Under the pieces are notes generated by a model, which was not told the DNA's origin, ran no database searches, and saw only the letters and a program-made list of their open reading frames with translations. A DNA stretch of 64,000 bases. Origin: Candidatus Limnocylindrales bacterium. GTDB lineage: Bacteria > Chloroflexota > Limnocylindria > Limnocylindrales > CSP1-4. The position numbers and the translations under genes were made by a program. Location: assembly GCA_038245845.1 (NCBI GenBank), contig JBBRRZ010000019.1:158-64157 (forward strand), in the 5' to 3' direction. Positions 18,949 through 46,995 of this stretch are shown here, in pieces; the first letter of the stretch is position 1; each line of letters begins with the position of its first letter.

Positions 18949-19089
18949 TCATGCATCACAGACTGAAATCGGAATGCTGCCCGCACGACGGCGCATCGAA
19001 ACCCGACATTGGCGACGCTGTCGTGCGAGGCCCGGTCCGATCCGAGTCGCTGCTGCATGGCTGGTGGCCCCGGGGTCACGACGGTCAGA

Positions 19090-19220: not shown

Positions 19221-19260
19221 ACCGGCGGCCCCGGCCGGCAACCAGCCGCGCCAGCCCGCG

Positions 19261-22808
<3,548 letters not shown>

Positions 22809-27004: not shown

Positions 27005-27970
27005 TCAGGCGCCGACGCCGGCGGTCGCCAGCTCGATGAGTGCAGCGGCGTCGCCGATCGGGATCGCGAAGCCCAGCCCCTGGGCGCTGCTCGCCACGGC
27101 CGTGTTGATGCCCAGGACGGCGCCAGTAGCGTCGAGCAGCGGGCCACCCGAGTTGCCCGGGTTGATCGCGGCGTCCGTCTGCATGAGGTTCGACAGCTTG
27201 GCCGGGCGGCCGGTCTGCTCGTCCCGGACCGTGACCTCGCGGCCGAGGCCGGACAGGATGCCGCGGGTGACGGTCTCCGTGTATGTACCCAGCGGGCTGC
27301 CGATCGCGAGCAGCGTCTCACCGACCTTCACGCTGGAGGAGTCACCGATCCGGGCGGCCGCCAGGCCGGTCGCGTCGACCTTGATCAGGGCGAGGTCGTT
27401 GTCCGTGAGCTGCTTCACGAGCGTGGCGTCGTATGTCGTGCCGTCCTGGAGCTCGACGCTCAGGGTCCTGGCGCCTTCCACGACGTGGCGGTTGGTGAGG
27501 ATGTAGCCGTTCGAGGTCAGGACAATCCCGGACCCGATGCCGCCTGTCGGCTGGCCGAAGGGCGAGAACTGGTCGGTCGTCAAGCCGTTCGAGGTGATCG
27601 TGACGACAGACTTCTGCGCCTGGGCGACGATGGCCGTGAGGTCGGTGGACTGAACCGTCGTGGCGCTCGTCGTGCGCGCGGTGCCGGTGCTCTCCGTGAC
27701 GACCGTGCGGACGGGGAGCAGCTGCGTCACGACGATGGCCGTGCCACCGGCCGCGAGCGAGGCGCTCAGCACCGCCGCGGCGATGACGGTCCCGATGCCG
27801 CGCCCACGGCGCTCCCGGGTCATCGTCGGCTCGGACGCCCCGGGGTTCGCGGGCGGCTCGGGCGTCGCCCAGAGGGGCGCGGGCGGGACGGGCGGCCCGG
27901 CGGGCGCATCCGGCATCGGAGCCGCATACGGCTGCGTGGGAGGCTCGGAAGGGTCGTACGGGAAGGTCAT
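27005..27970 (-). CDS. Trypsin-like S1C serine protease (HtrA/PepD-like catalytic domain, no PDZ seen)
   Basis: Catalytic triad contexts TNRHVV, DNDLALIKV, NPGNSGGPL. Pro-rich N-terminus plus TM. ATG at 27970 within ORF 27005..28096. Confidence 0.85.
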   Translation of the reverse strand: MTFPYDPSEPPTQPYAAPMPDAPAGPPVPPAPLWATPEPPANPGASEPTMTRERRGRGIGTVIAAAVLSASLAAGGTAIVVTQLLPVRTVVTESTGTARTTSATTVQSTDLTAIVAQAQKSVVTITSNGLTTDQFSPFGQPTGGIGSGIVLTSNGYILTNRHVVEGARTLSVELQDGTTYDATLVKQLTDNDLALIKVDATGLAAARIGDSSSVKVGETLLAIGSPLGTYTETVTRGILSGLGREVTVRDEQTGRPAKLSNLMQTDAAINPGNSGGPLLDATGAVLGINTAVASSAQGLGFAIPIGDAAALIELATAGVGA

Positions 27971-28100
27971 CGGGGTCGCTCCGTGGTGGGAGGCTTCGGG
28001 TCCATTGACGCCAGTACACGCCCGTCCCCTGAGAGCGGCGTGAGAGGTCAACCCGTGGCGGCGATCCGCAGCCGTCGACGCCCCGGCCCGGGACATTGTG

Positions 28101-30056
28101 TCAGCCCGCTGCCCCGGCGCAGTCGTAGAGGGTGGTGGACGCCCCGGGCACGCTCACCGGCGTGCACGCCTGGGTCACCCACTGGCTCCGCTCCCCGGCG
28201 ACGTCGCCCGTGCCATCACCACCGAAGAACCCGCCTGGCCCACCGCCCGGACCCCCCAGGAGCACGAAGCGGAGACGGCCGTCCCGGACGTCAGCCTGGA
28301 GCTGCGCGAGCGTCGGGGCGGGATCGGAGCCAATGAAGCCGCCCATCGCCATGACCGGGATGCCGGCCGCAATCTGGATCGGCCCCGCCTGGTTGGCGGA
28401 CGAGACCGCGACGAGCCAGGTCGCGTCGCCCCGGTTCGCGACGAGGTAGTCGATCAGCGCCTGGTTCGTCCCGCCCGTATCGCCCGGGAAGCCGCTTGCG
28501 CCGAAGCCACCGAACGCGCCGCTCACCGGCCCCGCCGCCGGGTCGCCACCGGCGATTGCCTTGCCGGTGGTCTCGATGGTGTAGAGCATCGGGCCCGCGA
28601 GCGATGCCGCGATCCCGATCGCGAAGGCCGTTCTCGCGATCTGCGCGGCCCGTCCGTCGTCGGCGATCCGTGGGACCGCGAGCACCACCGCGGCCGCCAG
28701 GACGATGAACAAGGCACCGATCCCGACCCCCGGGAAGAACGCGGGTGTCCGGTCGAGGACGCTCATGCCCCACCAGGCGGTCATGACCAGCATGGCCGCC
28801 AGCACGAGGCCGACCCACGGGACCCGCGCCCGCAACCGCCACAGCTCCATCACACCCGCCCCGACCAGGGCAGCGATGGCCGGCGCAAGGGCGACGGCGT
28901 AGTACGGGTGCGCGATGCCGCCCATGAGGGAGAACACCAGGACGTGGACGGCCACCCACGTGCCCCACAGGAGGTACCCGGCGCGGCGCGGGTCGGTGCG
29001 GCCGGCGCGCAGCCGCGCCAGCAGCCCGATGGCGAGCGCCATCGCGGCCGCCGGGAGCAGCCAGCTGACCTCGCCCGCCCACTGTTCGTTGAACATCCGG
29101 AGGAGCCCGGGCTGGCCGCCGAACGCACCACCCGGGCCACCCCCGGGGCCGCCGCCCGGGCCGCCCTCGCCGCGGAAGAGGCGCCCGAGGCCGTCATAGC
29201 CCAGGAGCAGCTGGACGGCGGAGTTCGTGGGGCTGCCACCGATGAACGGCCGCGAGCCCGCGGGGATCAGCTCCATCAGGCCGACCCACCACAACGACGA
29301 CACGGCGACGGCGATCAGCGACGCGAGGAGCCCGGTCGCGCGATGGCGCACGGAGCCGCGCGCCGCCACCAGGTAGGTCAGCGCGAACGCTGGCAGCACG
29401 AGGTAGGCCTGCATGTACTTCGTGAGGAACGCGAACCCCACGAGGATGGCCGCGAGGATCGGCCAGCGCAGCCGTTCGCTCTCGAGGCCCCGGATGAGCG
29501 CCCATGCGGCGCCGACGAGCAGCAACACGAGGACGGCGTCCGGGTTGTTGTAGCGGAACATGAGCGCCGCGACCGGCGTGACTGCGAACGCGATCCCGGC
29601 GATCACGCCCGCTTCTGGGCCGAACTGGCGCTTGACCGCGTGGTACAGCAGGACCACCGACGCGACGCCGGCCAGCGCCTGCGGCAGCAGGATGTCGAAC
29701 GGGCTGAGCCCGAACAGCCGGACCGACAGGCCCATCACCCACAGCGCCACCGGCGGCTTGTCCACGGTGATGAAGTTGGCGGCGTCGATGGAGCCGAAGA
29801 ACCAGGCGCTGATGCTCTGCGATGCAGCCTGCGCGGCCGCCGAGTAGTAGGTGTTGGCATAGCCGCTGACGGCGATGTTCCACAGGTAGAGGACCGCGGC
29901 GAGACCGGCCAGGGCGAACGGCGCGACGCGGATCCATGACGCCTGCCGATCCGTCGCCTCGGCCCCGTCCGCCACCCACGTCCCGGCACGTGCATCCAGG
30001 ACACTCGTGGCACCGTCTGGGGGGAGCGTGGTGTCAGGAGTGGTCACGGCCGGCAC
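28101..30056 (-). CDS. GT39/ArnT-PMT-type membrane glycosyltransferase with C-terminal extracytoplasmic domain
   Basis: YSAAAQAASQSISAWFFGSIDAANFITVDKPPVALWVMGLSVRLFG is typical of the family. At least 10 TM segments. GTG start at 30056. Confidence 0.8.
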   Translation of the reverse strand: MPAVTTPDTTLPPDGATSVLDARAGTWVADGAEATDRQASWIRVAPFALAGLAAVLYLWNIAVSGYANTYYSAAAQAASQSISAWFFGSIDAANFITVDKPPVALWVMGLSVRLFGLSPFDILLPQALAGVASVVLLYHAVKRQFGPEAGVIAGIAFAVTPVAALMFRYNNPDAVLVLLLVGAAWALIRGLESERLRWPILAAILVGFAFLTKYMQAYLVLPAFALTYLVAARGSVRHRATGLLASLIAVAVSSLWWVGLMELIPAGSRPFIGGSPTNSAVQLLLGYDGLGRLFRGEGGPGGGPGGGPGGAFGGQPGLLRMFNEQWAGEVSWLLPAAAMALAIGLLARLRAGRTDPRRAGYLLWGTWVAVHVLVFSLMGGIAHPYYAVALAPAIAALVGAGVMELWRLRARVPWVGLVLAAMLVMTAWWGMSVLDRTPAFFPGVGIGALFIVLAAAVVLAVPRIADDGRAAQIARTAFAIGIAASLAGPMLYTIETTGKAIAGGDPAAGPVSGAFGGFGASGFPGDTGGTNQALIDYLVANRGDATWLVAVSSANQAGPIQIAAGIPVMAMGGFIGSDPAPTLAQLQADVRDGRLRFVLLGGPGGGPGGFFGGDGTGDVAGERSQWVTQACTPVSVPGASTTLYDCAGAAG

Positions 30057-31035: not shown

Positions 31036-31761
31036 CTACCTGCTCGGGCTGGCAACCGGCGTGGCGCGGGGGTCGGGCGAGACCGGCAGCTTCGGGCGCA
31101 CGTCGTGGCACAGCACGCACGTCGAGTCGGCGCGCAGCGCGTGGTCGATCGGCAGCGCACCCACGTCGGTGGACTGGTGGCATGCCCGGCACGTGCGGTC
31201 CTGCGGGTCCGGGTGCGGCTTGATCGGCGGCGGCGACGGGTTCGGCTTGTGGCACAGCCAACACTCGTCCTCGTTGCGGCCGACCATGCTCGTCGGCAGG
31301 TGGGCGATCTTGCCGTGGCAGTCCAGGCACGCCTCGTTGAGGTCGGCGTGGGCCTGGGTGATCGTCGGCCCGTCGGGCGCCGTCTTGTGGCAGTTGAGGC
31401 ACTCCGACTGGGCGATGCCGTCGTGGCCGGGCGCGTTGCGGCCCAGCTTCTCGCCGGTGTGGCAGGTCAGACACGCGGTCCAGCCCTTGACGGGGTGGCC
31501 CAGGGCCGGGATCGGCTTGATCCCGGCCGCGCCGCCTTCCGTGTGGCACAGGACGCAGCTGTCCGAGGTGGGGATATGCGCGAGGCCCATCTCCATCAAC
31601 TCGATGGACGCGGCCGGCGACCCCGACGGATCAGCCCCGGGACCCCCGACCGACGGGAGGATGCGCAACCAGTCGGCGACCATCGTGCCGGCGAGCATCG
31701 CGACGACGATGAGGTTGAGCACGATGAGGAGCCGCAGCGTCCGGCTGACCCTGCGCTTCAT
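31036..31761 (-). CDS. Membrane-anchored heptaheme c-type cytochrome
   Basis: Seven CxxCH: CVLCH, CLTCH, CLNCH, CLDCH, CWLCH, CRACH, CVLCH. Each is preceded by a His 6-13 residues upstream. N-terminal TM LRLLIVLNLIVVAMLAGTMV. ATG at 31761 overlaps the protease stop (ATGA). Confidence 0.85.
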   Translation of the reverse strand: MKRRVSRTLRLLIVLNLIVVAMLAGTMVADWLRILPSVGGPGADPSGSPAASIELMEMGLAHIPTSDSCVLCHTEGGAAGIKPIPALGHPVKGWTACLTCHTGEKLGRNAPGHDGIAQSECLNCHKTAPDGPTITQAHADLNEACLDCHGKIAHLPTSMVGRNEDECWLCHKPNPSPPPIKPHPDPQDRTCRACHQSTDVGALPIDHALRADSTCVLCHDVRPKLPVSPDPRATPVASPSR

Positions 31762-32306
31762 GCGGTCGCCGCTGTCAGCGTGGGAGTGGCGCTCCCGTGG
31801 TGTGCAGAAACGGTGGTGCCGCGTGCCTCGTCCGCGAGCGCCCATGCCGTACGCCGGACGGTGGCGATCGCGAGCGGGAGCGCCGCCTCGACGCGTGGCG
31901 AGAGCCCGAGTTCGAAGGTGATCTCCCCTGCCTCGACGCCGACGAGGGCGACGGGCCGGGTCATGCTGGCCAGGAGCCGCGCGACGGCCAGGAGCTCGGC
32001 GATCCCGCCCGCGGCCGACCCGGACCGCCCGGGGGCCGCGCCGATGGCGTCGTCCCTCAACACGCGCACGGTGCCCGGCTCGCCCCCCGTGTCGAGCGCG
32101 TCCACGACGAGGACCGCGCATGCGCCGTTGATCTCGTCGAGCAGGTCCATGCCCAGCGTGCCGCCGTCGACGAGGCGGGTCTGCGCCGGCAGCAGCGACG
32201 CATCGTCGTTCGCCAGCCAGCCGAGCGCCTCCACGATCCTCGGGCCGATGCCATCGTCGCGCAGCAGCACATTGCCCACACCGATCACGACGAGGGGGCC
32301 GCTCAT
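31758..32306 (-). CDS. [NiFe]-hydrogenase maturation endopeptidase (HyaD/HybD family)
   Basis: LVVIGVGNVLLRDDGIGPRIVEAL...VLVVDALD. ATG at 32306 overlaps the cytochrome b stop (ATGA). Confidence 0.85.
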   Translation of the reverse strand: MSGPLVVIGVGNVLLRDDGIGPRIVEALGWLANDDASLLPAQTRLVDGGTLGMDLLDEINGACAVLVVDALDTGGEPGTVRVLRDDAIGAAPGRSGSAAGGIAELLAVARLLASMTRPVALVGVEAGEITFELGLSPRVEAALPLAIATVRRTAWALADEARGTTVSAHHGSATPTLTAATA

Positions 32307-33160
32307 GCCTCGGTCCGATCGAGGAGCTCGACGCCGCCATCGCGCGACTCGACGATCTCCTCGCGGGTCGGGAACTTGAACCCCGACACGATGCTGGAGA
32401 TCAGGCCGTTGTGCTCGAGATGGTCCACGAGGATGCAGCTGTAGATGTGGAACAGCGCGATCGCGAGGATCCCCCACATCGCGAGGTGGTGGACGAGGCG
32501 GAGCAGCTGCGGGCCGAGGAGCTCGCGCAGCCATGCGAACAGCGTCGCCCCGGGCTCGGCGCCCGTCAGCCCGTCGAGCGCGAAGCCCGTCACGACCTCG
32601 ACGAGCAACAGGGCGAACAGCACCACGTAGGCGGTCGCGGCCAGCTGGTTGTGGCCGAGGACCTTGGGGATCTCCTTGCGGATGAAGCCATAGAACCCTG
32701 CTTGCCGGAACAGCTCGGTCGCCTGGAACATCGACGTGGGGATGAATGCCGACCAGCGTGCGAACCGGTTGCCCGCCAGGAGCCAGTACGTCCGCACGAG
32801 CCCGGACAGCAGGAACGCCAGCGCCGTCACGATGTGGATGAAGCGGACGACGCCAAGCAGGTTGGCGCCATTCGGGAGCAGGAACGGGTCCGCGATGTAC
32901 AGGCCGGTGGCGCTGAGCACGACGATGCAACCGGCGGTCACCCAGTGGGTCGCCCGGACCGGGACCTGCCAGATGTACAGCCGGACACGCTCGTCGGGGC
33001 GGTCGATCTCGTGTGCGTGGCCGACCACTGCATCGTGCATTGCGGCGGGGACGGCGAATGCGGCCGGCGTGGCCTCCACGGGCACCGCCGACGGCTCGGG
33101 GATGGCCGACGGCTCCGGCACCGGGGCGACGGCCGGCGGGGCGTCGTGGACGGCGGTCAT
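32303..33160 (-). CDS. Ni/Fe-hydrogenase b-type cytochrome subunit (HyaC-like)
   Basis: VRATHWVTAGCIVVLSATGLYI, RFIHIVTALAF, HHLAMWGILAIALFHIY. Four TM segments with conserved His. ATG at 33160 overlaps the large-subunit stop (ATGA). Confidence 0.8.
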   Translation of the reverse strand: MTAVHDAPPAVAPVPEPSAIPEPSAVPVEATPAAFAVPAAMHDAVVGHAHEIDRPDERVRLYIWQVPVRATHWVTAGCIVVLSATGLYIADPFLLPNGANLLGVVRFIHIVTALAFLLSGLVRTYWLLAGNRFARWSAFIPTSMFQATELFRQAGFYGFIRKEIPKVLGHNQLAATAYVVLFALLLVEVVTGFALDGLTGAEPGATLFAWLRELLGPQLLRLVHHLAMWGILAIALFHIYSCILVDHLEHNGLISSIVSGFKFPTREEIVESRDGGVELLDRTEA

Positions 33161-34929
33161 CGACTCGCCTCCGTGGCGTGGATGCGGATGTCGAACGGGC
33201 CGGCGCCGCGTGGGTCGAACGCGTGGACGGCACATGCAGGGCAGGGGTTGAAGCTGTGGACCACACGCAGCACCTCGAGCGGTCGCGTGGGATCCGCGAC
33301 CGGCGTCCGCAGGAGCGCGTCCTCGATCGGGCCCCGCCTGCCGAACGTGTCGCGCGGCGACAGGTTCCACGTGGACCCGTCCACGACCTGGTAGTGGTCG
33401 ATGGCCTTGTCGCGGATGCTCACCCAGTGCGCAACCGCGCCGCGCGGCCCCTCCCCGGTCGACCAGCCATCGGCCTCGTCGGGCCACGATCCCGGGTCCC
33501 AGGTGGACAGATCCACGACCGCCACGTCGCCCGTGGCGAGGTTCGTCCGCAGCTCCCAGACCCAGCTGTCGGCGCGCTTCGCGATCGCGGCTGCCTCGAC
33601 GGCCCGGGCCATGAGCCTGCCGAGCACGCTGGGCATCGCCTCCGCGCCCAGGCCGGTCGCCGTGAGGAGCGCCCCGAGCGGAGATGTGATCGCGTCACGG
33701 CCCTGCGCGTACGCCACGAGGACGCGCGCGAGTGGCCCGGTCTCCATCGGCTCACCGTCGTAGCGCGGTGCCTTGACCCAGCTGTAGCGACCCTCGGTGT
33801 CGAGCGCGCCCAGTGGCAGCACGGCATCGAACGCCGCGTCCGTGATGCCGTCCACCGGCGCGCGCAGGGCTGCTGGACCGCGATCCTCCGCGTACCACGC
33901 GTGGGCGACGGACTCCCCTACGCCGTCCTGGTCAGCGGCCTTGATGCTCGCGAGGTTCCCGTTGACGAGCCGTCCCGCCGGCAGGTAGAGCGGCGGCTCG
34001 CGCTCGTCGGTCTCGGCCAGATCGCCCCACGAGAGGTAGTTGCCCGACCCGCCGCCGATCTGCGTCCAGTCCGGGTACGCAGCGACGAGCAGCCGCATGT
34101 CCGGCAGGAACACGCGATTGACGAAGGCGCCCGCGCGCCCGATGAGGTCGTCGAGCATCGTCAGGCCGGCGTCGCTCAGCGGATGCGGGGCGTTGCGATC
34201 CGGCACGTCCGGGTGACCGCGCTGCTGACTCGGAGCGGGGCCACCCCACGGCGGCGCGAGCGCCATCCCGCCGACGAGGTATGTCTGGGGGTGGGGGTCC
34301 TTGCCACCCAGGAGCGCATGGATGCGCATCACGTCGCGCTGCCAGTCGAGGGCCTCGAGGGCATGGGCGAGGAGGAGGAGGCTCTGCTCGGGCGATAGGG
34401 CGAACCCCGGGTGTCCGGACCACGGGCTGCTGAACGGCCCGGGCTGGTCCGACTCCAGGACAGGGGCAAGCCGCGCCTGGACCGCGCGCAGGCTGTCGGC
34501 GGTCGAGGAGGGCCAGTCGGCCATCGAGCGGCCGAGCGTCGCGGTCGCCACCGGATCGGCGCGCAGAGAGGCCGAGGCGTCCACCCAGTCGGGCAGCTGT
34601 GCCTGGTAGAAGGTGAGCACGTGGTCGCGCACCAGCTGCGTGGACGCGAGGAGGTTGCGCAGAATCCGGGCGTTCGTCGGAATGCGGACGTTGAGCGCGC
34701 GTTCGACGGCACGCACGGAGGCGAGCGCATGGACACTGCTGCAGGTGCCGCAGATGCGGGACGCCAGGAGCCAGACCTCGCGCGGGTCGCGGCCGTGGAT
34801 GACGTTCTCGAGGCCGCGGAACATCGTCCCGGCGCTCCATGCGTCGCTGACCGCCCCGGCCGTCACGTCGACGTCGACGCGCAGCTGGCCGTTGAGGCGC
34901 GTGACGGGATCGATGCTGAGGCGGGTCAT
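33157..34929 (-). CDS. [NiFe]-hydrogenase large subunit (divergent)
   Basis: N-terminal IDPVTRLNGQL, RICGTCSSVH (RxCGxCxxxH), C-terminal HSFNPCPACAVH followed by a 21-aa extension. ATG at 34929. Confidence 0.9.
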   Translation of the reverse strand: MTRLSIDPVTRLNGQLRVDVDVTAGAVSDAWSAGTMFRGLENVIHGRDPREVWLLASRICGTCSSVHALASVRAVERALNVRIPTNARILRNLLASTQLVRDHVLTFYQAQLPDWVDASASLRADPVATATLGRSMADWPSSTADSLRAVQARLAPVLESDQPGPFSSPWSGHPGFALSPEQSLLLLAHALEALDWQRDVMRIHALLGGKDPHPQTYLVGGMALAPPWGGPAPSQQRGHPDVPDRNAPHPLSDAGLTMLDDLIGRAGAFVNRVFLPDMRLLVAAYPDWTQIGGGSGNYLSWGDLAETDEREPPLYLPAGRLVNGNLASIKAADQDGVGESVAHAWYAEDRGPAALRAPVDGITDAAFDAVLPLGALDTEGRYSWVKAPRYDGEPMETGPLARVLVAYAQGRDAITSPLGALLTATGLGAEAMPSVLGRLMARAVEAAAIAKRADSWVWELRTNLATGDVAVVDLSTWDPGSWPDEADGWSTGEGPRGAVAHWVSIRDKAIDHYQVVDGSTWNLSPRDTFGRRGPIEDALLRTPVADPTRPLEVLRVVHSFNPCPACAVHAFDPRGAGPFDIRIHATEASR

Positions 34930-34930
34930 G

Positions 34931-36163
34931 TCAGCCCTCCCCGCTGGTCTCTCGCGTGTCTGCGTCATCGGGGATCGCCAGCGGTATACCAACGGCGAGC
35001 GCCACATCCCCGGCCGCGGTGTCGCCCTCGGCCGCGGCGACACTCCCGGCCGGCGTGCCGTCCGCGGCCGCGGCGAGCTGGACCGCGCGGCGTGCCTTCC
35101 GCGCCCGGTACTTCGAGCGGCTGGCCATGCCCGTCCCGTGGGCGACCGCCACCCCGGCGATCCCACCGACCGCCAGCAGTCCGACCTGGTCCACGGTCAA
35201 CGTTGGCATGAACGGGACGGGCGACCCGAGCCGTCGATAGGCGGGCGCATAGCCATCCCAGAAGTTCGGCATGAAGCAGCCGATGCAGCCATGACCGGCG
35301 CGGATGTTCCAGCTCACACCGCCGCCGTAGCGCGCGGTCGGGCAGTTGCCCATCGTCTCGGGACCCTTGCAGCCGAGCTTGTACAGGCACCAGCCCTTCT
35401 GTGCGCCCTCGTCGCCCCAGCTGAGCGCGAACTCGCCGAACTCGAAGTGGGGCCGTCGCTCGCACTTGTTGTGGATCAGCTCGCCGTACCCGAACAGCGG
35501 CCGGCCGGCGAGGTCCGTCGGCGGGAGCTCCTTGAAGGTGGCGTAGTGGACGATCAGCGCGGCGAGGTTCTCGGCGTTGGCCGGACAGCCCGGCAGGGCG
35601 ATGACCGGACTGTTGCCGCTCACCGATCGGATGCCCTCGGCCTCGGTCGTGCCGCCATTCGCGCCCGGCGCCCCGCCATCGAAGGCACAGGACCCGAGGG
35701 CGATCGTGGCAATGGCGCCGTCACACACCTCCCGGGCGACGTCGGCGAATGGCCGACCCCCGATGAGGCACATCGCGCCGCCTGCCGCCTTGGGCACGGC
35801 ACCCTCGATGACCGCGAGGTAGCCGTTCGGGTAGCGCTCCATCGCCGAGGTGCGCACGAGCTCGGCGTCCGCACCGGCGGCGCCCATCAGGCTCTCGTCG
35901 TAGTCCACGGCGAGGACCTGGAGGAGGAGGTTGGCAGTCGTGGGATTGCCGACCCGCAGCAGCGCCTCGGAGTTGCCGCCGCACGCCTGGCCGCGGAGCC
36001 AGATCACCGGGATTCTGGGGGCTGCCTCGACGGCAGCGGCGATTCGTGGTCCGTAGGCCAGGGGCATCGCGAGCGCCGCGGCCATGGCTGACGAGAACTG
36101 GAGGAAGGTTCGGCGGGACATCCCGCGCGCCACGAGCGCGGCGTAGAGCCCGTCCTCACCCAT
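34931..36163 (-). CDS. [NiFe]-hydrogenase small subunit, Tat-exported, C-terminal TM anchor
   Basis: Twin-arginine signal SRRTFLQF. FeS motifs GSCAFDGG, LPGCPAN, IHNKCERRPHF, GWCLYKLGCKGP, GHGCIGC. Hydrophobic C-terminus VGLLAVGGIAGVAVA. Confidence 0.9.
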   Translation of the reverse strand: MGEDGLYAALVARGMSRRTFLQFSSAMAAALAMPLAYGPRIAAAVEAAPRIPVIWLRGQACGGNSEALLRVGNPTTANLLLQVLAVDYDESLMGAAGADAELVRTSAMERYPNGYLAVIEGAVPKAAGGAMCLIGGRPFADVAREVCDGAIATIALGSCAFDGGAPGANGGTTEAEGIRSVSGNSPVIALPGCPANAENLAALIVHYATFKELPPTDLAGRPLFGYGELIHNKCERRPHFEFGEFALSWGDEGAQKGWCLYKLGCKGPETMGNCPTARYGGGVSWNIRAGHGCIGCFMPNFWDGYAPAYRRLGSPVPFMPTLTVDQVGLLAVGGIAGVAVAHGTGMASRSKYRARKARRAVQLAAAADGTPAGSVAAAEGDTAAGDVALAVGIPLAIPDDADTRETSGEG

Positions 36164-38708: not shown

Positions 38709-39263
38709 TCAGGCGGAGGCGCCGCCGTTGCGACCCTCGATCGGGCGCGTGCGCAGCGGCTTCGTCATCGTCTCGCTCACCGGCTGGTAGGCGAGCTTCG
38801 CATACAGGCGCCGGGCACCGTCGTTCTCCGCCGCAACGTCCAGCACCAGCCCATCGAGCCCCTGCTCCCGCGCCCAGTCCTCGATCGTGTCCATCAGCAG
38901 CGTGCCAAGCCCGCGTCCGCGCCACTCGTCGAGGATCGCGATCCCGATCTGGGCGGTGCGCTTCGGGATCCGCATCGAGCTCCGGCCAGCGGTCGCACCC
39001 AGCCAGGCGTCCGCGTGCCCGACCACGCGCCCATCCACGACGGCGACGAGGTGGAGGTCCTCCTCGTCCGCCTCCGCCATCGCATGCCCGAACCGCTCGC
39101 GCACCGCGTCCGCGGCGGGCACGTGATATGCGTCGGGAGCGAGCGCCGCATGGTGGCGGGCGCTGCTGAGATAGACCTCGACCATCCCCTCCACGTCATC
39201 GGGCGTTGCGTGGCGGACGAGCGGCGGCGGGGCCTCGCTGCGGGCGTCGTCCGAGCCGGTCAT
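38709..39263 (-). CDS. GNAT-family N-acetyltransferase
   Basis: IAILDEWRGRGLGTLLMDTIEDWAREQG is the acetyl-CoA binding motif (R/Q-x-x-G-x-G/A). ATG at 39263 overlaps the ALDH stop (ATGA). Confidence 0.8.
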   Translation of the reverse strand: MTGSDDARSEAPPPLVRHATPDDVEGMVEVYLSSARHHAALAPDAYHVPAADAVRERFGHAMAEADEEDLHLVAVVDGRVVGHADAWLGATAGRSSMRIPKRTAQIGIAILDEWRGRGLGTLLMDTIEDWAREQGLDGLVLDVAAENDGARRLYAKLAYQPVSETMTKPLRTRPIEGRNGGASA

Positions 39264-40768
39264 GCGGGCTGGTTGTCGATCTGCGCGCGCTGGAGCTTGC
39301 CCGAGAAGTCGACGTAGATCGCCTTCCATTCGGTGAACGTGTCGAGCGCGACGTGGCCCGCCTCGCGGTGGCCGTTGCCGGTGTCCTTCCAGCCGCCGAA
39401 CGGCAGGTGCGTCTCCGCGCCGGTCGTGCCCGCGTTGACATACACGATGCCCGTCTCGAAGTCGCGCATCGCGCGGAACGCCTGGTTCACGTCCTGCGTG
39501 TAGACCGATGCCGAGAGCCCGTAGCGGACCTGGTTGGCGGCGGTCATCGCCTCCGCATACCCGTCCACCGGGATCACCGAGAGGACCGGGCCGAAGATCT
39601 CCTCCTGGGCGATCGTCGCCATCGGCTTCACGCCGTGGAAGATCGTCGGGGCGAAGAAGTGGCCGTGGACGAGGTCGCCGTCGGTCACCCGGTCGCCACC
39701 GGTGACGAGCTCGCCCTCCGTCCGGCCGATGTCGACGTAGCGGGAGACCTTGTCCGCGGCCGCCGCGTTGACGAGCGGGCCGACATCGACGCTCTCGTCG
39801 AGGCCGGAGCCGAGCCGGAGGGTGCGGGTGCGTGCCTCGAGCCGGGCGACGAGGTCGTCCGCGACGGCGCGGTCAACGATGACGCGGGAGCAGGCCGTGC
39901 AGCGCTGGCCGGTAGTGCCGAACGCGGACCACAGGATGCCGTCCGTCGCGAGGTCGAGGTCCGCGTCCTTGAGCACGACGACCGCGTTCTTGCCCCCGAG
40001 CTCCAGGCTGACGCGCTTGAGCCGGCGCGCCGCCCGCTCGGCGATCGAGCGACCGGTCGCGGACGAGCCCGTGAACGAGATGACCCGGACATCCGGGTTC
40101 TCGACGATCGCGTCGCCGACGTCCGCGCCCGACCCGGTCACGAGGTTCACGACCCCGGCCGGGAAGCCCGCCTCCGCCATCAGCTCCACGAGGAGCGTGG
40201 CACACAGCGGCGAGTCCGAGCTCGGCTTGAACACGACGCTGTTCCCGGCGACGAGCGCGGGCATCATCTTCCAGCACGGGATCGCCATCGGGAAGTTCCA
40301 GGGCGTGACGATCCCCGCGATGCCGAGCGGCTGGCGGATGCTCATCGCCCACTTGTCCGGGAGCTCGCTGGGGACCGTGTCGCCGAACATCCGGCGGCCC
40401 TCGCCGGCCATGAGGAAGGCGATGTCGATGCCCTCCTGGACGTCGCCGCGCGCCTCCGCCAGGACCTTGCCCATCTCGCGGGTCATGGCGCGGGCGAGGC
40501 GCTCCTTGTGGTCCGCCATGAGCGCGCCGAACCGGTACAGGATCTCGCCGCGCTTGGGGGCCGGCGTCGCCTTCCACGCGGGGCTTGCCATGTCGGCGGC
40601 GCGGACGGCCATCGCGACGTCCGCCGGGCTGCCGGCCTGGAACCGCCCGACGACGTCCCGGGTGTCGGCCGGGTTCACGCTCTCGAAGATCTCGCCGCCC
40701 ACGGCATCCACCCAGCGCCCGGCGATGAACAGCTGGTACGTGGTCGGATCGGCGGCGACCTCGGTCAT
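39260..40768 (-). CDS. NAD(P)-dependent aldehyde dehydrogenase
   Basis: VTPWNFP, FTGSSATG, LELGGKNA, FGTTGQRCTACSR (catalytic Cys), EEIFGPV. ATG at 40768 within ORF 39260..41272. Confidence 0.9.
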   Translation of the reverse strand: MTEVAADPTTYQLFIAGRWVDAVGGEIFESVNPADTRDVVGRFQAGSPADVAMAVRAADMASPAWKATPAPKRGEILYRFGALMADHKERLARAMTREMGKVLAEARGDVQEGIDIAFLMAGEGRRMFGDTVPSELPDKWAMSIRQPLGIAGIVTPWNFPMAIPCWKMMPALVAGNSVVFKPSSDSPLCATLLVELMAEAGFPAGVVNLVTGSGADVGDAIVENPDVRVISFTGSSATGRSIAERAARRLKRVSLELGGKNAVVVLKDADLDLATDGILWSAFGTTGQRCTACSRVIVDRAVADDLVARLEARTRTLRLGSGLDESVDVGPLVNAAAADKVSRYVDIGRTEGELVTGGDRVTDGDLVHGHFFAPTIFHGVKPMATIAQEEIFGPVLSVIPVDGYAEAMTAANQVRYGLSASVYTQDVNQAFRAMRDFETGIVYVNAGTTGAETHLPFGGWKDTGNGHREAGHVALDTFTEWKAIYVDFSGKLQRAQIDNQPA

Positions 40769-41290
40769 TCGGGTGGCTCCTCGGGTGGGCGTCTCGTGAC
40801 GGCCGTGGGCGTGTGCGGCCCGCGGATCGAGGCCATACTCCGGGCACCGCGCCGGGCCGTCAAACCGGCGGCGCGACCGTGTGTGACATGCCCGAGCCCG
40901 TCGTCCCCGCCCCCATCCAGTTCGTCGAACCTGACGCCCCGTCGACGGGTGGCGTCGCTGCCTCCGAGCCCCTGCGGGAAGCGGCCCGCCGCGTCCTCGC
41001 CGCCGATGGGCGCGAGCACGTCCTCCAGCAGTGGCCAGGTCGCCTCGCTCGTCGCGACGAGCGAGGGCCGCGAGGGGTTCGTGCCGCAGGGTTGCGGCAT
41101 CGGCAAGAGCTGGCTCCAGGCCCGCCTCGACAAGGCGCTCGGCGAAGGCTGAGGTCGTCCTGACACGATCGCCGCAGTCGCGAGGCGGCCGACGCATCAG
41201 CGCGATTGACTTTGGCGCGGACCACGCGATGCTGGACATTCGTGGCTCCCATGAAGCCGCCCGACGCACCATGTGGAGAGAACCTGAGCC

Positions 41291-42178: not shown

Positions 42179-43423
42179 CTACCGAACGCGGACTCGCTCG
42201 AACGCCATCGCCACGGACCCGCCGCCGCCCAGGCACAGCGTCGCGAGGCCGTATCGCCCGTTGCGCCGCGCGAGCTCGTGGAGGAGCGTCGCGACGATTC
42301 GCGCCCCGCTCGCCCCGATCGGGTGGCCGAGCGCGATCGCCCCGCCGTTGACGTTGACCTTCGACCAGTCGAACCCGAGCTCCCGCCCGTCAGCGAGCGT
42401 CTGGGCGGCGAACGCCTCGTTGATCTCGATGAGATCGTAGGCGTCGGGCGCGAGGCCGGTCTTCGCCTCCAGCGCGCGGACGCCCGTGATCGGCGCGAGG
42501 AACAGCCACTTCGGGGCGACCTCGGCCTGCGCGTAGCCGACGATCCGCGCCATCGGCGTCAGCCCGTGCCGTTCCACGGCCCGCTCCGACACGACGACCG
42601 TGGCCGCCGCGCCATCGGTGATCCCGGGCGCGTTGCCCGCCGTGACCGTCCCGGTCGTCGCGGCCCCGCGATCCTCGCCCGTCGGCAGCTCGAACACCGG
42701 CGCCAGACGGGCCAGCGCCTCGGGCGTCGTGTCGCGGCGCGGACTCTCGTCGACCGTCACGACGGTCTCGCGGCCCTTGGCATCCCGGACCGTCACGGGG
42801 GCAATCTCGGCGTCGAAGCGGCCCTCGTCGATCGCCGCGACGGCCTTGCGGTGACTCTCGACCGCCAGGTGGTCCTGGTCCTCGCGGCTCACCGCGGAGT
42901 GGATCGCCACGCGTTCGGCGTGCGTGCCCATGTGGCAGTCCTCGATCGCGCACCACAGCCCGTCGAGCACGGCCGCGTCCTCGAGCGTCCCGTTGCCGAG
43001 CCGGTAGCCGAAGCGCGCTTTGCGCAGGAGGAAGGGCGCCTGGTTCATCGACTCCATGCCGCCCGCCACGTATACGTCCCCGTCGCCCGCCCGGATCGAG
43101 GCCGCGGACAGCATGATCGCCTTGAGCCCCGAGCCGCAGACCCGGTTGATCGTCGTTGCGGACGTGGTGTCCGCGAGCCCCGCGCTCAACAGCGCCTGCC
43201 GGGCGGGCGCCTGGCCGGCACCCGCCTGCAGCACCTGGCCCATGATCACCTCGTCGATGGGCGTCCCCGGCGGCAGGCCCGACCGCTCCACCGCGGCGCG
43301 GATGGCGGTTCCGCCGAGTGCCGTCGCGGGGATCGTGGCGAGCGCCCCACCGAACTTCCCGATCGGCGTCCGTGCCGCGCTGACAATGTAGACATTCCCG
43401 TTCGGACCGCTCGCGTACTCCAT
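42179..43423 (-). CDS. Acetyl-CoA C-acetyltransferase (thiolase II)
   Basis: [11 protein letters not shown] (Cys nucleophile), [32 protein letters not shown] at 43423. Confidence 0.9.
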
Positions 43424-43516
43424 GTTGCCGAATCTACACCTCGGTACGTAGCCGTCCGAAAGCGGGACCGCTACAGTTCGTGGTCGAGAACGCCTGACAC
43501 GCTTGGGGGGAGCCGC

Positions 43517-44683
43517 GTGCCCAAGCCCGAAGTCCGCGAAGCCGCCGTCCAGCCGCCCGCGACCAGCGCCCGCGACTTGTTCGACGTGTACCGGACCGAC
43601 GCGCTCTCGTTTCTTGCCGCCGGCATCGCCCACGACCTCGCCAACCCGCTCGGCGCGATGCTCGCATTCGCGTCCTACCTCGCGTCCGATCCCCGCCTGC
43701 CCGCGGACCTGCGCGATGACGCACGCCTCCTGCGCGTCGAGGCGGCCCGGACGCATCGCATGGTGCGGACGCTGCTCGAGTTCGCGCGCAACCGGCCACC
43801 CTCGACCTCGGCGGTCGCAGTTGGACGCGTTGTCTCCGAGGTCCTGGAGCTCGAGGCATACCTCCTCGCCGAGGTCAGCGTGGAGGTGGACATCCCCGAG
43901 GATTTGCCGGCGGTCACCACTGATGCGTCCCGACTACGGCACCTCATCCTCGTGCTCAGCGTGGAGGCCATCAGACGGCTTGGCGAACGGCCGGCCCGCG
44001 GGCGACTGGACATCTCGGCGGATGTCGTCCCGGACCGGACGCGTGTCCGACTGGCGATGGCCTTCGAGCTCGATCCTGACGACGGGCCCGTGGCCGACAA
44101 CCGGCCCGCACGGTTCGACGCGGACGCCCTGGCCGCGGTCGCGGCCCTCGTACAGGAGCTCGGTGGCGACCTCCGGATCGAGCCCGCTGCCGCGGGCAGC
44201 CGATTCGTCCTGGAGCTGCCGATCGCGGCCGAGGTCACGCAGGACCCCGCGACCGCCGGAGACCCTGGCCGCCTACCGGCTCCGTCGTCCGGGCGCCCGG
44301 CTACGCCGGTGGACGCTCGGCCGGTCGTGCTCGTGTGTGACGACGAGCCAGCCATCCGCACGCTGGTGGCCAGGCTGCTCGGCCGCGCCCGCTTCCGGAC
44401 GCTGGAGGCTGCCGACGCGAGCGAGGCCCTCCGCCTCCTCGACACGAACGACGTCGACGTGGTGCTGACCGATCACCACATGCGCGAGATGAGCGGGATC
44501 GAGCTGTACGAACGCGCAATCGAGAAGCGCATGCCACTTTCCCCACGGTTCGTGCTCATGTCCGGCGATCCCGGTGGCGAGGAGCTGGTCCAGTTCGCGA
44601 GCGAGCACCACATCACGATCCTCGCCAAGCCCTTCGACCTCAAGACCATCACGGCGATCATCGACGACGTCGCGCGCCACTGA
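43517..44683 (+). CDS. Hybrid HisKA-(degenerate HATPase)-receiver protein
   Basis: GTG at 43517 preceded by GGGGGGAG. H-box LAAGIAHDLANPLGAML. C-terminal REC domain: VVLVCDDEP, VVLTDHHMREMSG, ILAKPF. N/G1/G2 boxes not recognisable. Confidence 0.75.
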   Translation: MPKPEVREAAVQPPATSARDLFDVYRTDALSFLAAGIAHDLANPLGAMLAFASYLASDPRLPADLRDDARLLRVEAARTHRMVRTLLEFARNRPPSTSAVAVGRVVSEVLELEAYLLAEVSVEVDIPEDLPAVTTDASRLRHLILVLSVEAIRRLGERPARGRLDISADVVPDRTRVRLAMAFELDPDDGPVADNRPARFDADALAAVAALVQELGGDLRIEPAAAGSRFVLELPIAAEVTQDPATAGDPGRLPAPSSGRPATPVDARPVVLVCDDEPAIRTLVARLLGRARFRTLEAADASEALRLLDTNDVDVVLTDHHMREMSGIELYERAIEKRMPLSPRFVLMSGDPGGEELVQFASEHHITILAKPFDLKTITAIIDDVARH

Positions 44684-44724: not shown

Positions 44725-45585
44725 TCAGCGCGGGTAGGCGTGGAACCCGCGGCCCGTCTTCTGGCCCAGGTGCCCGGCCGCCACGAGCTCGACCAGCACG
44801 GCCGGCGGGACGAACTGCGGCTGGCCGAAGCCATCCTCGAGCACGCTCATGATGCCGAGGCACACGTCGAGGCCGATGAAGTCCGCGAGCGCCAAGGGAC
44901 CCATCGGGTGATTCAGGCCGACCCGTGCACCCGTGTCGATGTCCTCGGCCGTGCCCAGGCCCTCCTCGTATGCCCGCATCGCCTCCGCGAGGAAAGGCAT
45001 CAGGATGCGATTGACGATGAACCCCGGCCGGTCCGCGGACACGATGACCTGCTTGCCGAGCTCGGCTGCGAGCGTCCGAATCGAGGCCTCCGTCTCGTCG
45101 CTCGTCGCGCTGCCGCGGATCAGCTCGATGAGCGGCATCACCGGCACGGGGCTGAAGAAATGCATCCCGACGAAGCGCGCCCGCCGACCCTCCCCGACCG
45201 CGTCCGCGAGCGTGTCGATCGCGATGGACGACGTGTTCGAGGCGAGGAGCGCGCCGGCGGGCGCGATGGCGTCGAGCGACCCCCACAGCCGCGTCTTGAC
45301 ATCGACGTCCTCGAACACGGCCTCGACCACGAGGTCGGCATCGCCGGCCGCAGCGAGCGTGTCGACCGCGACGAGTCTCGCGAGGATGGCGGCGCGCTCG
45401 TCCGCCGTGAGCTTGCCCTTCGCGATCGCGCGCTCGAGGTTGCCGGCGATCCGGTCCCACCCCGCCTGCGCTCGCGCAAGGTCAGGCTCGTAGAGGACCA
45501 CGTGCTTGCCAATGGCCGCGTGGACCTGCGCGATGCCGTGGCCCATCAGCCCGGCACCCGCGACGAAGACTCGTTCGACCGTCAT
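44725..45585 (-). CDS. hbd: 3-hydroxybutyryl-CoA dehydrogenase
   Basis: VFVAGAGLMGHGIAQV Rossmann motif, ASNTSS, HFFSPVPVMPLIE, PGFIVNRIL. ATG at 45585 overlaps the meaB stop (ATGA). Confidence 0.9.
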   Translation of the reverse strand: MTVERVFVAGAGLMGHGIAQVHAAIGKHVVLYEPDLARAQAGWDRIAGNLERAIAKGKLTADERAAILARLVAVDTLAAAGDADLVVEAVFEDVDVKTRLWGSLDAIAPAGALLASNTSSIAIDTLADAVGEGRRARFVGMHFFSPVPVMPLIELIRGSATSDETEASIRTLAAELGKQVIVSADRPGFIVNRILMPFLAEAMRAYEEGLGTAEDIDTGARVGLNHPMGPLALADFIGLDVCLGIMSVLEDGFGQPQFVPPAVLVELVAAGHLGQKTGRGFHAYPR

Positions 45586-46580
45586 CGGGCCTCCTCCGTG
45601 CGCAGGGCGGCCAGCAGCCGGTCCGCGGCCATGTACGGGTCCGTCTCGTGCGCGGCGACGGCGTCGATCGCGGCCGCGGTCTGGGCCTCGAGGGGCGGCG
45701 CGGCGAGCCGGTCCCACAGGCGCTCCACGAGAACCGCACGCACCTGGGCGGTTGCGCGGGCGCGACGCGCGGCGCGGGTCGTCCCCTGGGCGCCCGTCGC
45801 CCGATGCCGGTCGAGCGCCGCGAGGAGCTCCGGGATGCCCTGCCCGGTCATCGCCGTCGTGACCAGAACCTCGGGTCGCTTCGGGGTCGGGCGGTCCGGG
45901 TCTGCGTCTCCGCGGGCCACGCTGGGTACGAGCATCGCGCGCAGCTGCGCGGCTGTGCGCTGGGCGCCCGGGCGATCGCCCTTGTTCACGACCACGAGAT
46001 CGGCGACCTCCAGCAGGCCGGCCTTGATCGCCTGGACCTCGTCGCCCATCTCGGGCGCCTCGAGCACGACCGTCGTGTCTGCGGCGGCCGCGACCTCGAC
46101 CTCGCTCTGGCCCGTGCCCACCGTCTCGAGCAGCACGATGTCGAAGCCCGAGGCGGCGAGGACCGTCGCCGCGGCGGTCGAGGTCGCCGCGAGCCCGCCC
46201 GCGTGCCCACGCGACGCCATCGAGCGGATGAACACGGCGTCGTCGGACGCGTACGACTGCATGCGCACCCGGTCTCCGAGCAGCGCGCCCCCGGTGATCG
46301 GCGAGGACGGGTCCACGGCCACGACCGCGACCGTCCGGCCGGCGGCCCGCAGCTCCGCGATGAGCGCCGCCACCAGCGTAGATTTGCCGGCACCGGGCGG
46401 CCCGGTGATGCCCACCAGGTGCGCGGCCCCGGCCAGCGGGTAGAGGCGCCGCAGGGCCTGCTCCGCGACGGGGGTGTGGTTCTCGACGGCGGTCAGCAGC
46501 CGCGCGAGCGCCCGGCGATCGCCCGCACGGGCGGCATCGGCAAGGGTGGCGGCTCGGTCCGCAGCAGTCTCGTCGGCCAT
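45582..46580 (-). CDS. meaB: MeaB/ArgK-type G-protein chaperone of B12-dependent acyl-CoA mutases
   Basis: GITGPPGAGKSTL P-loop, AVDPSSPITGGALLGDRVRM, VVNKGD. Confidence 0.9.
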   Translation of the reverse strand: MADETAADRAATLADAARAGDRRALARLLTAVENHTPVAEQALRRLYPLAGAAHLVGITGPPGAGKSTLVAALIAELRAAGRTVAVVAVDPSSPITGGALLGDRVRMQSYASDDAVFIRSMASRGHAGGLAATSTAAATVLAASGFDIVLLETVGTGQSEVEVAAAADTTVVLEAPEMGDEVQAIKAGLLEVADLVVVNKGDRPGAQRTAAQLRAMLVPSVARGDADPDRPTPKRPEVLVTTAMTGQGIPELLAALDRHRATGAQGTTRAARRARATAQVRAVLVERLWDRLAAPPLEAQTAAAIDAVAAHETDPYMAADRLLAALRTEEAR

Positions 46581-46590
46581 CGGGCGGCCG

Positions 46591-46995
46591 TCAGTCGCGC
46601 GGCGTCGCGTTGGCGCGGATGAAGTCGGCGACCTCGCGGATCGTCGTGCCGGGCCCGAAGACCTCCGAGACCCCCGCGGCCTTGAGCTGCGGGATGTCGT
46701 CGTCGGGGATGATGCCGCCGACCGTCACCAGGACGTTGTCCAGGCCACGCTCGCGCAGCTGGGCGCAGACACGCGGCACGAGCGTCATGTGGGCGCCGGA
46801 CAGGATCGAGAGGCCGACGACGTCCACGTCCTCCTGGAGCGCGGCGGTCACGATCATCTCGGGGGTCTGGCGGAGGCCCGTGTAGACGACCTCGAAGCCC
46901 TCGTCGCGCAGGCCGCGCGCGAGGACCTTCGCCCCGCGGTCGTGGCCGTCGAGGCCGGGCTTCGCGATCAGCACCTTGAGCGGTCGATCGGTCAT
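46591..46995 (-). CDS. Acyl-CoA mutase small subunit (cobalamin-binding domain)
   Basis: [17 protein letters not shown] (DxHxxG), [17 protein letters not shown]. 134 aa. Confidence 0.9.

Follow-up and report, generated by a model that had tools for sequence, protein, structure and literature searches.

A Limnocylindrales lineage of group-1 [NiFe]-hydrogenase subunits that lacks the proton-gate glutamate

A 64,000-nucleotide stretch of a Candidatus Limnocylindrales bacterium genome (GenBank assembly GCA_038245845.1, contig JBBRRZ010000019.1, positions 158 to 64,157; the whole stretch is referred to as the window, G+C 72%) carries a minus-strand operon of five genes, coding for a [NiFe]-hydrogenase small subunit (SSU) and large subunit (LSU), a cytochrome b, a maturation endopeptidase and a heptahaem cytochrome c. 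As judged from sequence, the region encodes group-1 [NiFe]-hydrogenase subunits that are exported by twin-arginine translocation (Tat) and bound to the membrane, and that belong to a lineage branched from group-1f-like uptake enzymes. Comparison of the LSU with its homologues identified a clade in which the proton-gate glutamate is absent from every member; the canonical proton-exit residues were evidently lost in one ancestral step, with a package of co-varying changes fixed alongside. The reading favoured here, with moderate confidence, is that the complex is a still-matured H2-uptake enzyme, probably slow, in which the proton path has been rerouted and the iron-sulphur (FeS) relay altered.

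Results

Departures from canonical hydrogenases at three motifs

The motif register was set by phmmer against all PDB chains, and positions are given in E. coli Hyd-1 numbering unless residues of the window proteins are named. Residues 3-569 of the LSU align to Salmonella Hyd-5 and E. coli Hyd-1 without gaps at the motifs: R11-L-N13-G-Q15 falls on R26-I-E28-G-H30 of Hyd-1, N561-PCPAC-AVH569 on D574-PCLAC-STH582, and Cys60, Cys63, Cys563 and Cys566 on C76, C79, C576 and C579. C61-G-G-N64 of the SSU takes the place of C17-T-C19-C20, again with no gaps. A first-pass annotation of the window had picked out these three departures by eye; the ungapped alignments to Hyd-1 bear it out, as no shift places a Glu or a Cys at the positions concerned, and an eye-alignment error is ruled out by these profile alignments to solved structures.

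Homologues were taken from the best 120 LSU matches (54-99% identity), the best 120 SSU matches and a locus scan with one genome per GTDB species, which gave 80 loci. Co-variation was compared between 44 clade and 37 canonical species representatives; residues were counted over 162 Glu-less and 37 canonical LSUs, and over 160 clade SSUs (40 locus-derived and 120 database matches) and 36-37 canonical SSUs. Database proteins with 99-100% identity to those of the window bear the name Candidatus Limnocylindrales (Chloroflexota). Nearly all of the best 120 LSU homologues read RxGGH, RxGGQ or RxNGQ. Position 28 is Gly in 131, Asn in 23, Ser in four and Asp in four of the clade LSUs, as opposed to Glu in 37/37 of the next relatives, and SSU position 20 is Asn, Asp or Glu in 120/120 top SSU homologues. 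Given that Glu28 is missing from 162/162 homologues and present in 37/37 relatives, and given the uniform change at SSU position 20, the deviations are not due to chance. That the substitutions are fixed in 162 homologues, drawn from dozens of species-level genomes, also answers the question, raised in the first-pass annotation, of whether they might be sporadic.

A co-varying package in the large subunit

Loss of Glu28 is one part of a package, most traits of which split clade and canonical sequences fully, the SSU Arg13 and the cytochrome c gene being near-complete. Within the LSU the package consists of Val530→Asp, Val78→Thr, a change of Leu126, a variable Asp574, a 17-residue insertion and a longer C-terminal tail; elsewhere in the operon it consists of SSU Glu13→Arg, an endopeptidase without His93 and the added heptahaem cytochrome c gene. 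Position 530 is Asp in 162/162 clade LSUs and Val in 37/37 canonical LSUs, and Val78 is replaced by Thr in 138/162. The L3 histidines are replaced in the clade, as is Leu126, which gives way to small or polar residues; His30→Gln is found in about half of the clade LSUs, and Pro531→Gly/Ala, Ala507→Gly and Leu512→Val are among the further changes. At position 574 the clade has Ala (75), Asp (38), Asn (30), Ser (13) or Gly (3). The insertion follows the HPQTYLVGG motif, carries W228, G230, P231 and H239 in 162/162 sequences and is absent from all 37 canonical LSUs. The C-terminal tail has 21 residues and a conserved E-x-x-R end in the clade (21 residues in 102/162), versus 15 residues in 33/37 canonical relatives.

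The ligands of the metal site are retained through most of the clade. Cys76 is present in 162/162 members, Cys79 and Cys576 each in 159/162 and Cys579 in 160/162; Arg509 is kept in 153/162, Asp118 in 156/162, His83 in 159/162, the cyanide (CN)-binding Ser/Thr532 in 156/162, and the Mg ligands Glu57 and His582 in 162/162 and 158/162. In the window LSU two of the three canopy residues are kept, Arg496 (Arg509) and Asp102 (Asp118), and the third, Asp574, is Asn561. An AlphaFold2 model of this LSU has the hydrogenase fold (predicted TM-score 0.83; TM-score 0.86 to the solved group-1 LSUs 4C3O and 3UQY); its predicted local distance difference test score is below 50 at residues 9-14, 210-244 and 564-590, which are the L1 loop, the insertion and the C-terminus, and active-site geometry is not readable from it.

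A cluster-level survey with HMMER against 1.84 billion representatives of 50%-identity clusters recovered the clade as P0002, a second full-length representative, P0241, and fragments, with Asp530 found only there. A pattern search for Asp530 had also matched P0244, P0257, P0308 and P0356; P0257 and P0308 are off-target by PDB alignments, and the presence of Asp530 in other hydrogenases was rejected, because a full alignment of the cluster representatives shows it in this clade only. Unrelated LSU lineages without the glutamate do occur (P0277, P0312, P0318, P0324, P0326, P0360, P0371, P0376, P0382 and P0387), with RIHGY, RVNGP and RISGF as examples of the L1 motif, lengths of ~450-507 residues, CGIC, Asn at Asp118 and Thr at position 530; these are possibly sensor-type group 2 enzymes.

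The small subunit and the cytochromes

The remaining FeS ligands named in the first-pass annotation all align with those of Hyd-1. The proximal site keeps C17, C115 and C149, with Asn64 for Cys20; the medial ligands C230, C249 and C252 and the distal ligands H187, C190, C215 and C221 are present, and 10/11 of the usual FeS ligands are thus kept. The C19 and C120 positions are Gly, like those of standard O2-sensitive enzymes. The idea that the CxxN motif might co-vary with the loss of the glutamate has to be given up: Cys20→Asn/Asp is carried by 30/36 of the canonical RIEGH group-1f-like relatives as well, Geobacter hydrogenophilus and Geomobilimonas luticola among them, and co-variation of CxxN/D with Glu loss was rejected on that count. 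The change at Cys20 is by this evidence an older, inherited trait of the wider lineage that stands outside the Glu-less package. Canonical loci such as L074 and L078 have QSCTGDTE and QDCAGNTE together with a fully canonical LSU, and most Ktedonobacterales and Thermomicrobiaceae relatives also have Asp or Asn at the second proximal-cluster Cys.

Other positions of the SSU do follow the clade. An Asp at the Trp118 position (CAxDGG; Asp162 of the window SSU) is found in 160/160 clade SSUs versus 12/36 canonical SSUs, and Asp162 may be an alternative ligand of the proximal cluster or belong to its second sphere. Position 13 is changed from Glu to Arg in 158/160 clade SSUs (38/40 of the locus-derived ones), the acid at position 16 is lost in ~80% of the clade, and D188 is Asn in 160/160. 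Position 242 (Pro238 of Desulfovibrio fructosovorans) is Asn in 116/160 clade SSUs versus Pro in 37/37 canonical SSUs; we take this to be the site at which substitution by Cys turns the medial [3Fe-4S] cluster of D. fructosovorans into a [4Fe-4S] cluster.

The gene for the heptahaem cytochrome c is present at 41/44 clade loci, the three exceptions being contig ends, and at 0/37 canonical loci. Seven CxxCH motifs are found in 39/41 of these cytochromes, which share seven conserved distal His residues and an N-terminal membrane anchor. No close solved relative was found among PDB chains, the best matches being an MtrC domain (E=0.004) and ActA of alternative complex III (E=0.27). Beyond the departures of the first-pass annotation, the strongest signatures of the clade are therefore Val530→Asp, Val78→Thr, the insertion, the tail, SSU Glu13→Arg, Pro242→Asn and this cytochrome c.

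Maturation genes

The metal ligands proposed for the endopeptidase HybD are Glu16, Asp62 and His93 (PMC2670836). The first two positions are kept in 35/35 clade proteases, the window protein having an Asp at the position of Glu16 as well as the Asp62 equivalent. Of the five operon genes that for the protease is under the least constraint, and in the five clade members that lack it the cytochrome b gene is followed directly by that for cytochrome c. The Tat signal, the C-terminal extension and the endopeptidase gene, from which the first-pass annotation had argued for a matured and exported enzyme, are all present; the value of the endopeptidase as a sign of normal maturation is nevertheless weakened by the loss of His93, the fast evolution of the gene and its absence from some members.

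In canonical relatives hypF and hypD lie adjacent to the hydrogenase genes. For the clade, a HypF homologue (P0498) is encoded on the same 3,624,741-bp chromosome as the clade hydrogenase P0080, a 57%-identical relative of the window enzyme. It sits in a hypF-hypC-hypD-hypE cluster (L082, 10001-14990; chromosome OY970218.1 / contig_17905, 1.98 Mb) that lies ~0.7 Mb from the Glu-less operon; co-occurrence of the two is shown for this one complete chromosome. Neither hypA/hypB nor structural hydrogenase genes were found within 10 kb of this cluster.

Phylogeny and selection

In a neighbour-joining tree the Glu-less sequences form one clade, all from Limnocylindrales or unclassified Chloroflexota metagenome-assembled genomes, mostly from soil. 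Its sister group consists of three canonical Chloroflexi sequences, and clade and sister group together are nested among enzymes of Geobacter, Ktedonobacterales, Thermomicrobiaceae, Anaerolineae and Bryobacterales. LSU identity to the nearest outside relatives is 44-51%, and the radiation of the clade itself spans down to about 50% identity. By this topology there was a single Glu-to-Gly origin, and the Asn of the window, Ser and Asp arose later. The gene order of the operon and its flanks matches gene for gene between the window and the chromosome of the 57%-identical relative, which implies vertical inheritance.

Selection was estimated as the ratio of nonsynonymous to synonymous substitution rates (dN/dS) by the Nei-Gojobori method on close pairs. 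Ratios for the LSU are 0.11-0.27 in the clade versus 0.02-0.06 in canonical relatives, for the SSU 0.07-0.10 versus 0.01-0.06, for cytochrome b 0.05-0.36 versus 0.06-0.07 and for the protease 0.26-0.61 versus 0.06-0.16; the cytochrome c gene, absent from canonical relatives, has 0.09-0.24. Selection in the clade is clearly purifying but several-fold relaxed on the LSU and the protease. The reading frames of the window operon are intact and the ratios are far below 1 for all five genes, in agreement with the first-pass view that the operon is not decaying.

Further-diverged sub-lineages are found at L025, L032, L033, L034, L035, L055 and L061 (LSU at ~8001-9750 in most). L035 and L061 have CGAA for CGxC, L055 ends in CCQ, and L055 and L061 are also without the protease gene. 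The impression given by these sub-lineages is of complexes descended from hydrogenases in which the Ni site has been abandoned.

The features of the operon are collected in Table 1. The LSU start adopted, MTRLSID, lies behind the Shine-Dalgarno sequence GGGAGGG, and a longer open reading frame (ORF) begins further upstream.

Table 1. Genes and motifs of the hydrogenase operon, in window coordinates
Feature	Position	Strand	Remarks
Small subunit (SSU)	34931..36163	-	410 residues; C-terminal transmembrane anchor; PF01058 and PF14720, TIGR00391; Hyd-1 small chain E=2e-78
Tat motif MSRRTFLQ in SSU	36098..36121	-	TIGR01409 above cut-off; PF10518 slightly under cut-off
SSU Arg57	35993-35995	-	Just upstream of QACGGNSE; at Glu13 position of canonical relatives
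First proximal-cluster motif QACGGNSE	35966..35989	-	Cys17 kept; Cys20 position is Asn64 (35972-35974)
CAFDGG motif, SSU	35672..35689	-	Cys115 kept; Asp162 at Hyd-1 Trp118 position
Medial and distal motifs CLYKLGC…NC…GVSWN…GHGCIGC, SSU	35276..35389	-	Asn286 (35306-35308) at Pro242 position
Large subunit (LSU)	33157..34929	-	590 residues; PF00374 full-length E=3.5e-166; Hyd-5 and Hyd-1 E ~1e-133
L1 motif RLNGQ	34885..34899	-	Glu28→Asn13, His30→Gln15
L2 motif RICGTCSSVH	34729..34758	-	Both Cys and His kept; gas-channel Val78 is Thr62
L3 region RDHVLTFYQAQLPDW	34585..34629	-	Canopy Asp118 kept; canonical H..HLHAL histidines and Leu126 replaced
Clade-specific insertion region APPWGGP…GHP…NAP.PLS	34174..34257	-	Directly after HPQTYLVGG motif (His229 equivalent)
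L4 motif EGPRGAVAH	33427..33453	-	Pendant Arg509 kept (Arg496); Ala507→Gly, Leu512→Val
QVVDGSTWN	33364..33390	-	Asp517 at Hyd-1 Val530 of VP(S/T)TWN; Pro531→Gly
L5 motif NPCPACAVH	33223..33249	-	Asp574→Asn561; both Cys and terminal His kept
LSU C-terminal extension AFDPRGAGPFDIRIHATEASR	33160..33222	-	21 residues; clade-specific terminal E-x-x-R
Cytochrome b membrane subunit	32303..33160	-	285 residues; PF01292 E=2e-24; directly downstream of LSU; syntenic in related loci
HybD/HycI-family endopeptidase homologue	31758..32306	-	182 residues; PF01750; 1CFZ (E. coli HybD) E=7e-19
Endopeptidase loop GSAAGG	32004-32021	-	In place of SPHQ loop; His93 ligand is Ala
Membrane-anchored heptahaem cytochrome c	31036..31761	-	241 residues; 7 CxxCH; last operon gene; weak Pfam c7, c3 and NrfB-like matches

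Discussion

A proposed slow uptake enzyme with a rerouted proton path

If the complex is a still-matured uptake enzyme, the LSU would continue to receive a NiFe(CN)2CO-type centre and would oxidise H2, probably slowly. Protons would bypass the Glu gate on their way out by way of a water-filled cavity, which the change Glu28→Gly/Asn would open and Thr62 and Asp517 would render polar. Such a rerouted path is proposed because Glu28 and the acids of the SSU are lost and Asp and Thr are gained near the metals, while the first-sphere ligands and Arg509 are kept. On the electron side, the proximal cluster would be held by three Cys and Asn64/Asp162, as either a [3Fe-4S] or an O-ligated [4Fe-4S] cluster, and would be followed by a medial three-Cys cluster with Asn286 nearby and a His/three-Cys distal cluster, from which electrons would move on to cytochrome b (quinone), to the heptahaem cytochrome c outside the cytoplasm, or to both. 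The FeS relay and the cytochrome c suggest that redox tuning has been altered and that electrons have one more route on the extracytoplasmic side.

Catalysis without the glutamate has precedent, since the E17Q variant of Pyrococcus furiosus SH1 retains 20-30% activity (PMC8163435) and Hyd-1 E28Q is rescued once H2O/OH- enters beside the site (PMC8020662). The engineered variants of Hyd-1 (E28Q/E28D and D574N; PDB 5LMM, 5LRY, 5A4I) and of P. furiosus (E17Q) are altered at the same two LSU positions as the clade; when the Glu is replaced in them the metal site still assembles, and water partly rescues proton transfer. They are, however, single laboratory mutations in an otherwise canonical enzyme, whereas in the clade the changes arose naturally, are old and fixed, and come with many others that co-vary.

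A number of points weigh against this reading. The position of Val530 in the Fe-CO pocket is presumed from its equivalents (Val500/Leu482 in Desulfovibrio vulgaris MF; Val484/Leu466 in D. gigas); this placement agrees with the motif register Val-Pro-Ser/Thr, in which the Ser/Thr binds CN. A literature search found neither the residues that line the Fe-CO pocket nor an account of which ligands hold the proximal cluster in group 1f. The 64-kb window contains no hyp gene, and there is none in the ±8 kb around any clade locus. His93 of the protease is found in 0/35 clade members as against 33/33 canonical relatives, and normal Ni-dependent processing would not be assured, because the protease has lost a proposed Ni ligand across the clade and evolves fast. 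The LSU is constrained 3-5 times less strongly than its counterparts in the canonical relatives. Arg509 is Gly, Gln or Lys in 9/162 clade members, L035, L061 and P0053 have each lost a Ni/Fe cysteine, and L023, L043, L044, L055 and L061 have no protease gene; since some sub-lineages have lost Arg509, a metal cysteine or the protease, H2 catalysis would be dispensable in part of the clade. Finally, Glu28 is termed a universal proton gate, less than 4 Å from the terminal Cys, and Arg509 is called strictly conserved, both being treated as requirements that hold for all [NiFe]-hydrogenase catalysis (PMC8020662, PMC10430524), and E→Q variants of Hyd-1 are severely impaired (PMC8163435, PMC8020662).

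Other explanations

Because selection is relaxed, the protease is crippled and some sub-lineages are without Arg509 or a metal cysteine, two other explanations stay alive. In the first, the complex is an electron conduit in which the FeS chain of the SSU links the quinone pool and cytochrome b to the heptahaem cytochrome c, and the LSU is a silent scaffold for assembly and Tat export. The SSU and the two cytochromes are under the strongest selection, whereas that on the LSU and on the protease is relaxed, the gain of cytochrome c coincides exactly with the loss of the Glu, and the sub-lineages that lack Arg509, a metal Cys or the protease still hold the SSU and both cytochromes; the missing proton gate with its neighbouring acids and the protease without His93 fit this explanation as well. 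Hydrogenase modules have been kept for electron transfer after the loss of H2 chemistry in NuoD/NuoB of complex I, in Ehr and in the MBS sulfane reductase, and L035, L055 and L061 show a comparable loss of metal Cys or Arg509. Those systems derive from group 4, however, and have lost the metal cysteines outright, whereas the window LSU and ~95% of the clade keep them. A conduit is unlikely for three reasons: first, 94-100% of the 162 sequences retain the metal cysteines, Arg509, Asp118, His83, Ser/Thr532 and the Mg ligands, although a mere scaffold would be expected to drift as L035, L055 and L061 have done. Second, the gained Asp530 is invariant, which argues for a selected role at the metal site. 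Third, hypFCDE is kept in a clade genome.

The second alternative is a neofunctionalised metal site, in which the bimetallic thiolate centre is kept within a wider and more polar pocket that serves another substrate or holds another set of Fe ligands. The changes to the pocket are in keeping with this: Glu28→Gly/Asn, Val78→Thr, Leu126→Ala, Val530→Asp, Leu512→Val, Pro531→Gly and the variable Asp574. The second-sphere residues highlighted in standard enzymes are V74, L122 and E25 in D. fructosovorans numbering (review PMC11023054), and all three are changed here while the first-sphere cysteines are conserved. Asp530 is moreover invariant and, among representatives of 50%-identity clusters, confined to this lineage, and changes in the maturation protease and the tail have gone hand in hand with those at the site. 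Against these stand the retention of Arg509, Asp118 and the CN-binding Ser, as ordinary H2 chemistry predicts, and the want of positive evidence for an alternative substrate; in addition, the gene content of the window and of the 57%-identical relative (L081) shows no extra enzyme genes in the operon that would point to one. A change of substrate or ligand set in this sense is decidedly improbable. The fuller proposal, that the site was rebuilt for other chemistry or other Fe ligands and was coupled to the cytochrome c for electron exchange outside the cytoplasm, is doubtful. In it the rebuilding would consist of the invariant Asp in the presumed Fe-CO pocket, the missing proton gate and nearby acids, and a widened and polar channel end, and maturation would take a modified route, with a protease that lacks the Ni-binding His and a longer tail, E-x-x-R at its end, that may stay uncleaved. 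If true, group-1 [NiFe]-hydrogenases would have their first known case of neofunctionalisation.

It is very unlikely that the complex is an H2 sensor, for which slow proton transfer would be tolerable. Group 2b sensors are cytoplasmic, have no Tat signal and no C-terminal extension of the LSU, and work with a partner histidine kinase. Other Glu-less cluster representatives do look sensor-like (~450-507 residues, CGIC, Asn at 118), and histidine kinase genes are found near the operon in both the window and L081; these kinases, however, are several genes distant and of a generic type, and the Tat signal, membrane anchor, 21-residue LSU extension and cytochromes b and c set the window enzyme apart from group 2b. 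That a decaying operon has picked up sporadic mutations, or that the alignment is wrong, is hardly credible, as only the mild relaxation of LSU selection speaks for it, against ungapped profile alignments at three motifs, fixation in 162 homologues and dN/dS far below 1, and pseudogenisation is ruled out by the intact frames, the clade-wide conservation and these ratios.

Relation to known hydrogenases

Members of group 1f in HydDB include Hya of Geobacter and the enzymes of Roseiflexus, Acidobacterium ailaaui and Frankia (synton-3). The nearest outside relatives of the clade, for which the group-1f label is inferred from taxa and literature and not from the HydDB classifier, come from Geobacter, Ktedonobacterales, Thermomicrobiaceae, Anaerolineae and Bryobacterales and share with it the order SSU-LSU-cytochrome b-protease and, for the most part, Cys20→Asn/Asp. 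An SSU of ~410 residues, the length of the window SSU, has been reported for group 1f (PMC11879354). The canonical relatives differ in having RIEGH, CGVC, DHxxHFYHLHAL, VP(S/T)TWN, DPC, a 15-residue tail and a protease with His93; both the LSU insertion and the heptahaem cytochrome c are absent from them.

Enzymes with a non-standard FeS relay offer a second comparison. In the group 1h actinobacterial-type hydrogenase (AH) of Cupriavidus necator (PDB 5AA5) the proximal [4Fe-4S] cluster is held by three Cys and one Asp, and Huc of Mycobacterium smegmatis (group 2a; PDB 7UTD, 8DQV) has three [3Fe-4S] clusters (PMC11023054); the three-Cys site of the window SSU with its Asn, Asp or Glu could give either arrangement. 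The similarity is distant: 5AA5_C matches the C-terminal 90 residues with E=9e-29, which sets the window enzyme outside group 1h when compared with ~1e-133 for group 1d/1e structures, and Huc matches with E ~1e-44. Group 1h and Huc enzymes are not known to be Tat-exported cytochrome b complexes. The periplasmic hydrogenase and cytochrome c3 of Desulfovibrio resemble the present system in that both pair an exported group-1 enzyme with a small bis-His multihaem cytochrome c; unlike cytochrome c3, that of the window has seven haems and a membrane anchor and shares its operon with a cytochrome b.

Neither a Glu-less group-1 clade nor its signature turned up in a full-text literature search, and a survey of Chloroflexi-supergroup hydrogenases makes no mention of the clade. 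This large and conserved lineage, often met with in soil metagenome-assembled genomes, offers a natural test of proton exit, of the second-sphere contribution and of substrate recognition in Ni-dependent C-terminal processing. Limnocylindria (Ellin6529) are abundant in soil, and hydrogenase genes in metagenomes are routinely counted as H2-oxidation capacity; should the clade prove slow, unidirectional or non-hydrogenase, H2-oxidation counts for Limnocylindria would need revisiting. The wide occurrence of Cys20→Asn/Asp in canonical group-1f-like enzymes, those of cultured Geobacter included, offers an accessible system for non-Cys ligation of the proximal cluster.

Genomic neighbourhood

The extracytoplasmic flavinylation genes seen in the 57%-identical relative mark one difference in the surroundings of the operon. 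In L081 a set consisting of a Ferric_reduct/FAD/NAD protein, an FMN_bind protein and ApbE lies 3.5 kb downstream of the operon (17364-20162); in the window a PMT_2 glycosyltransferase (28101-30056) and a trypsin-like protease (27005-28153) are adjacent, without flavinylation genes between them. TadE/TadG-like Flp pilus assembly proteins are encoded at 6803-9427 (-). ORFs at 2035-3042 (-), 3407-4684 (-) and 17142-18743 (+) have a coding-like third-position G+C of 0.84-0.91 and no Pfam match at E≤1e-4. On the other side of the operon lie an aldehyde dehydrogenase (39260-41272) and a thiolase (42179-43933), both of which flank it in L081 too, and a MeaB GTPase (45582-46724, -), a B12-binding protein (54691-55467, +) and a methylmalonyl-CoA mutase (55464-57263, -); together these genes suggest the neighbourhood of a propionate or branched-chain acyl-CoA pathway.

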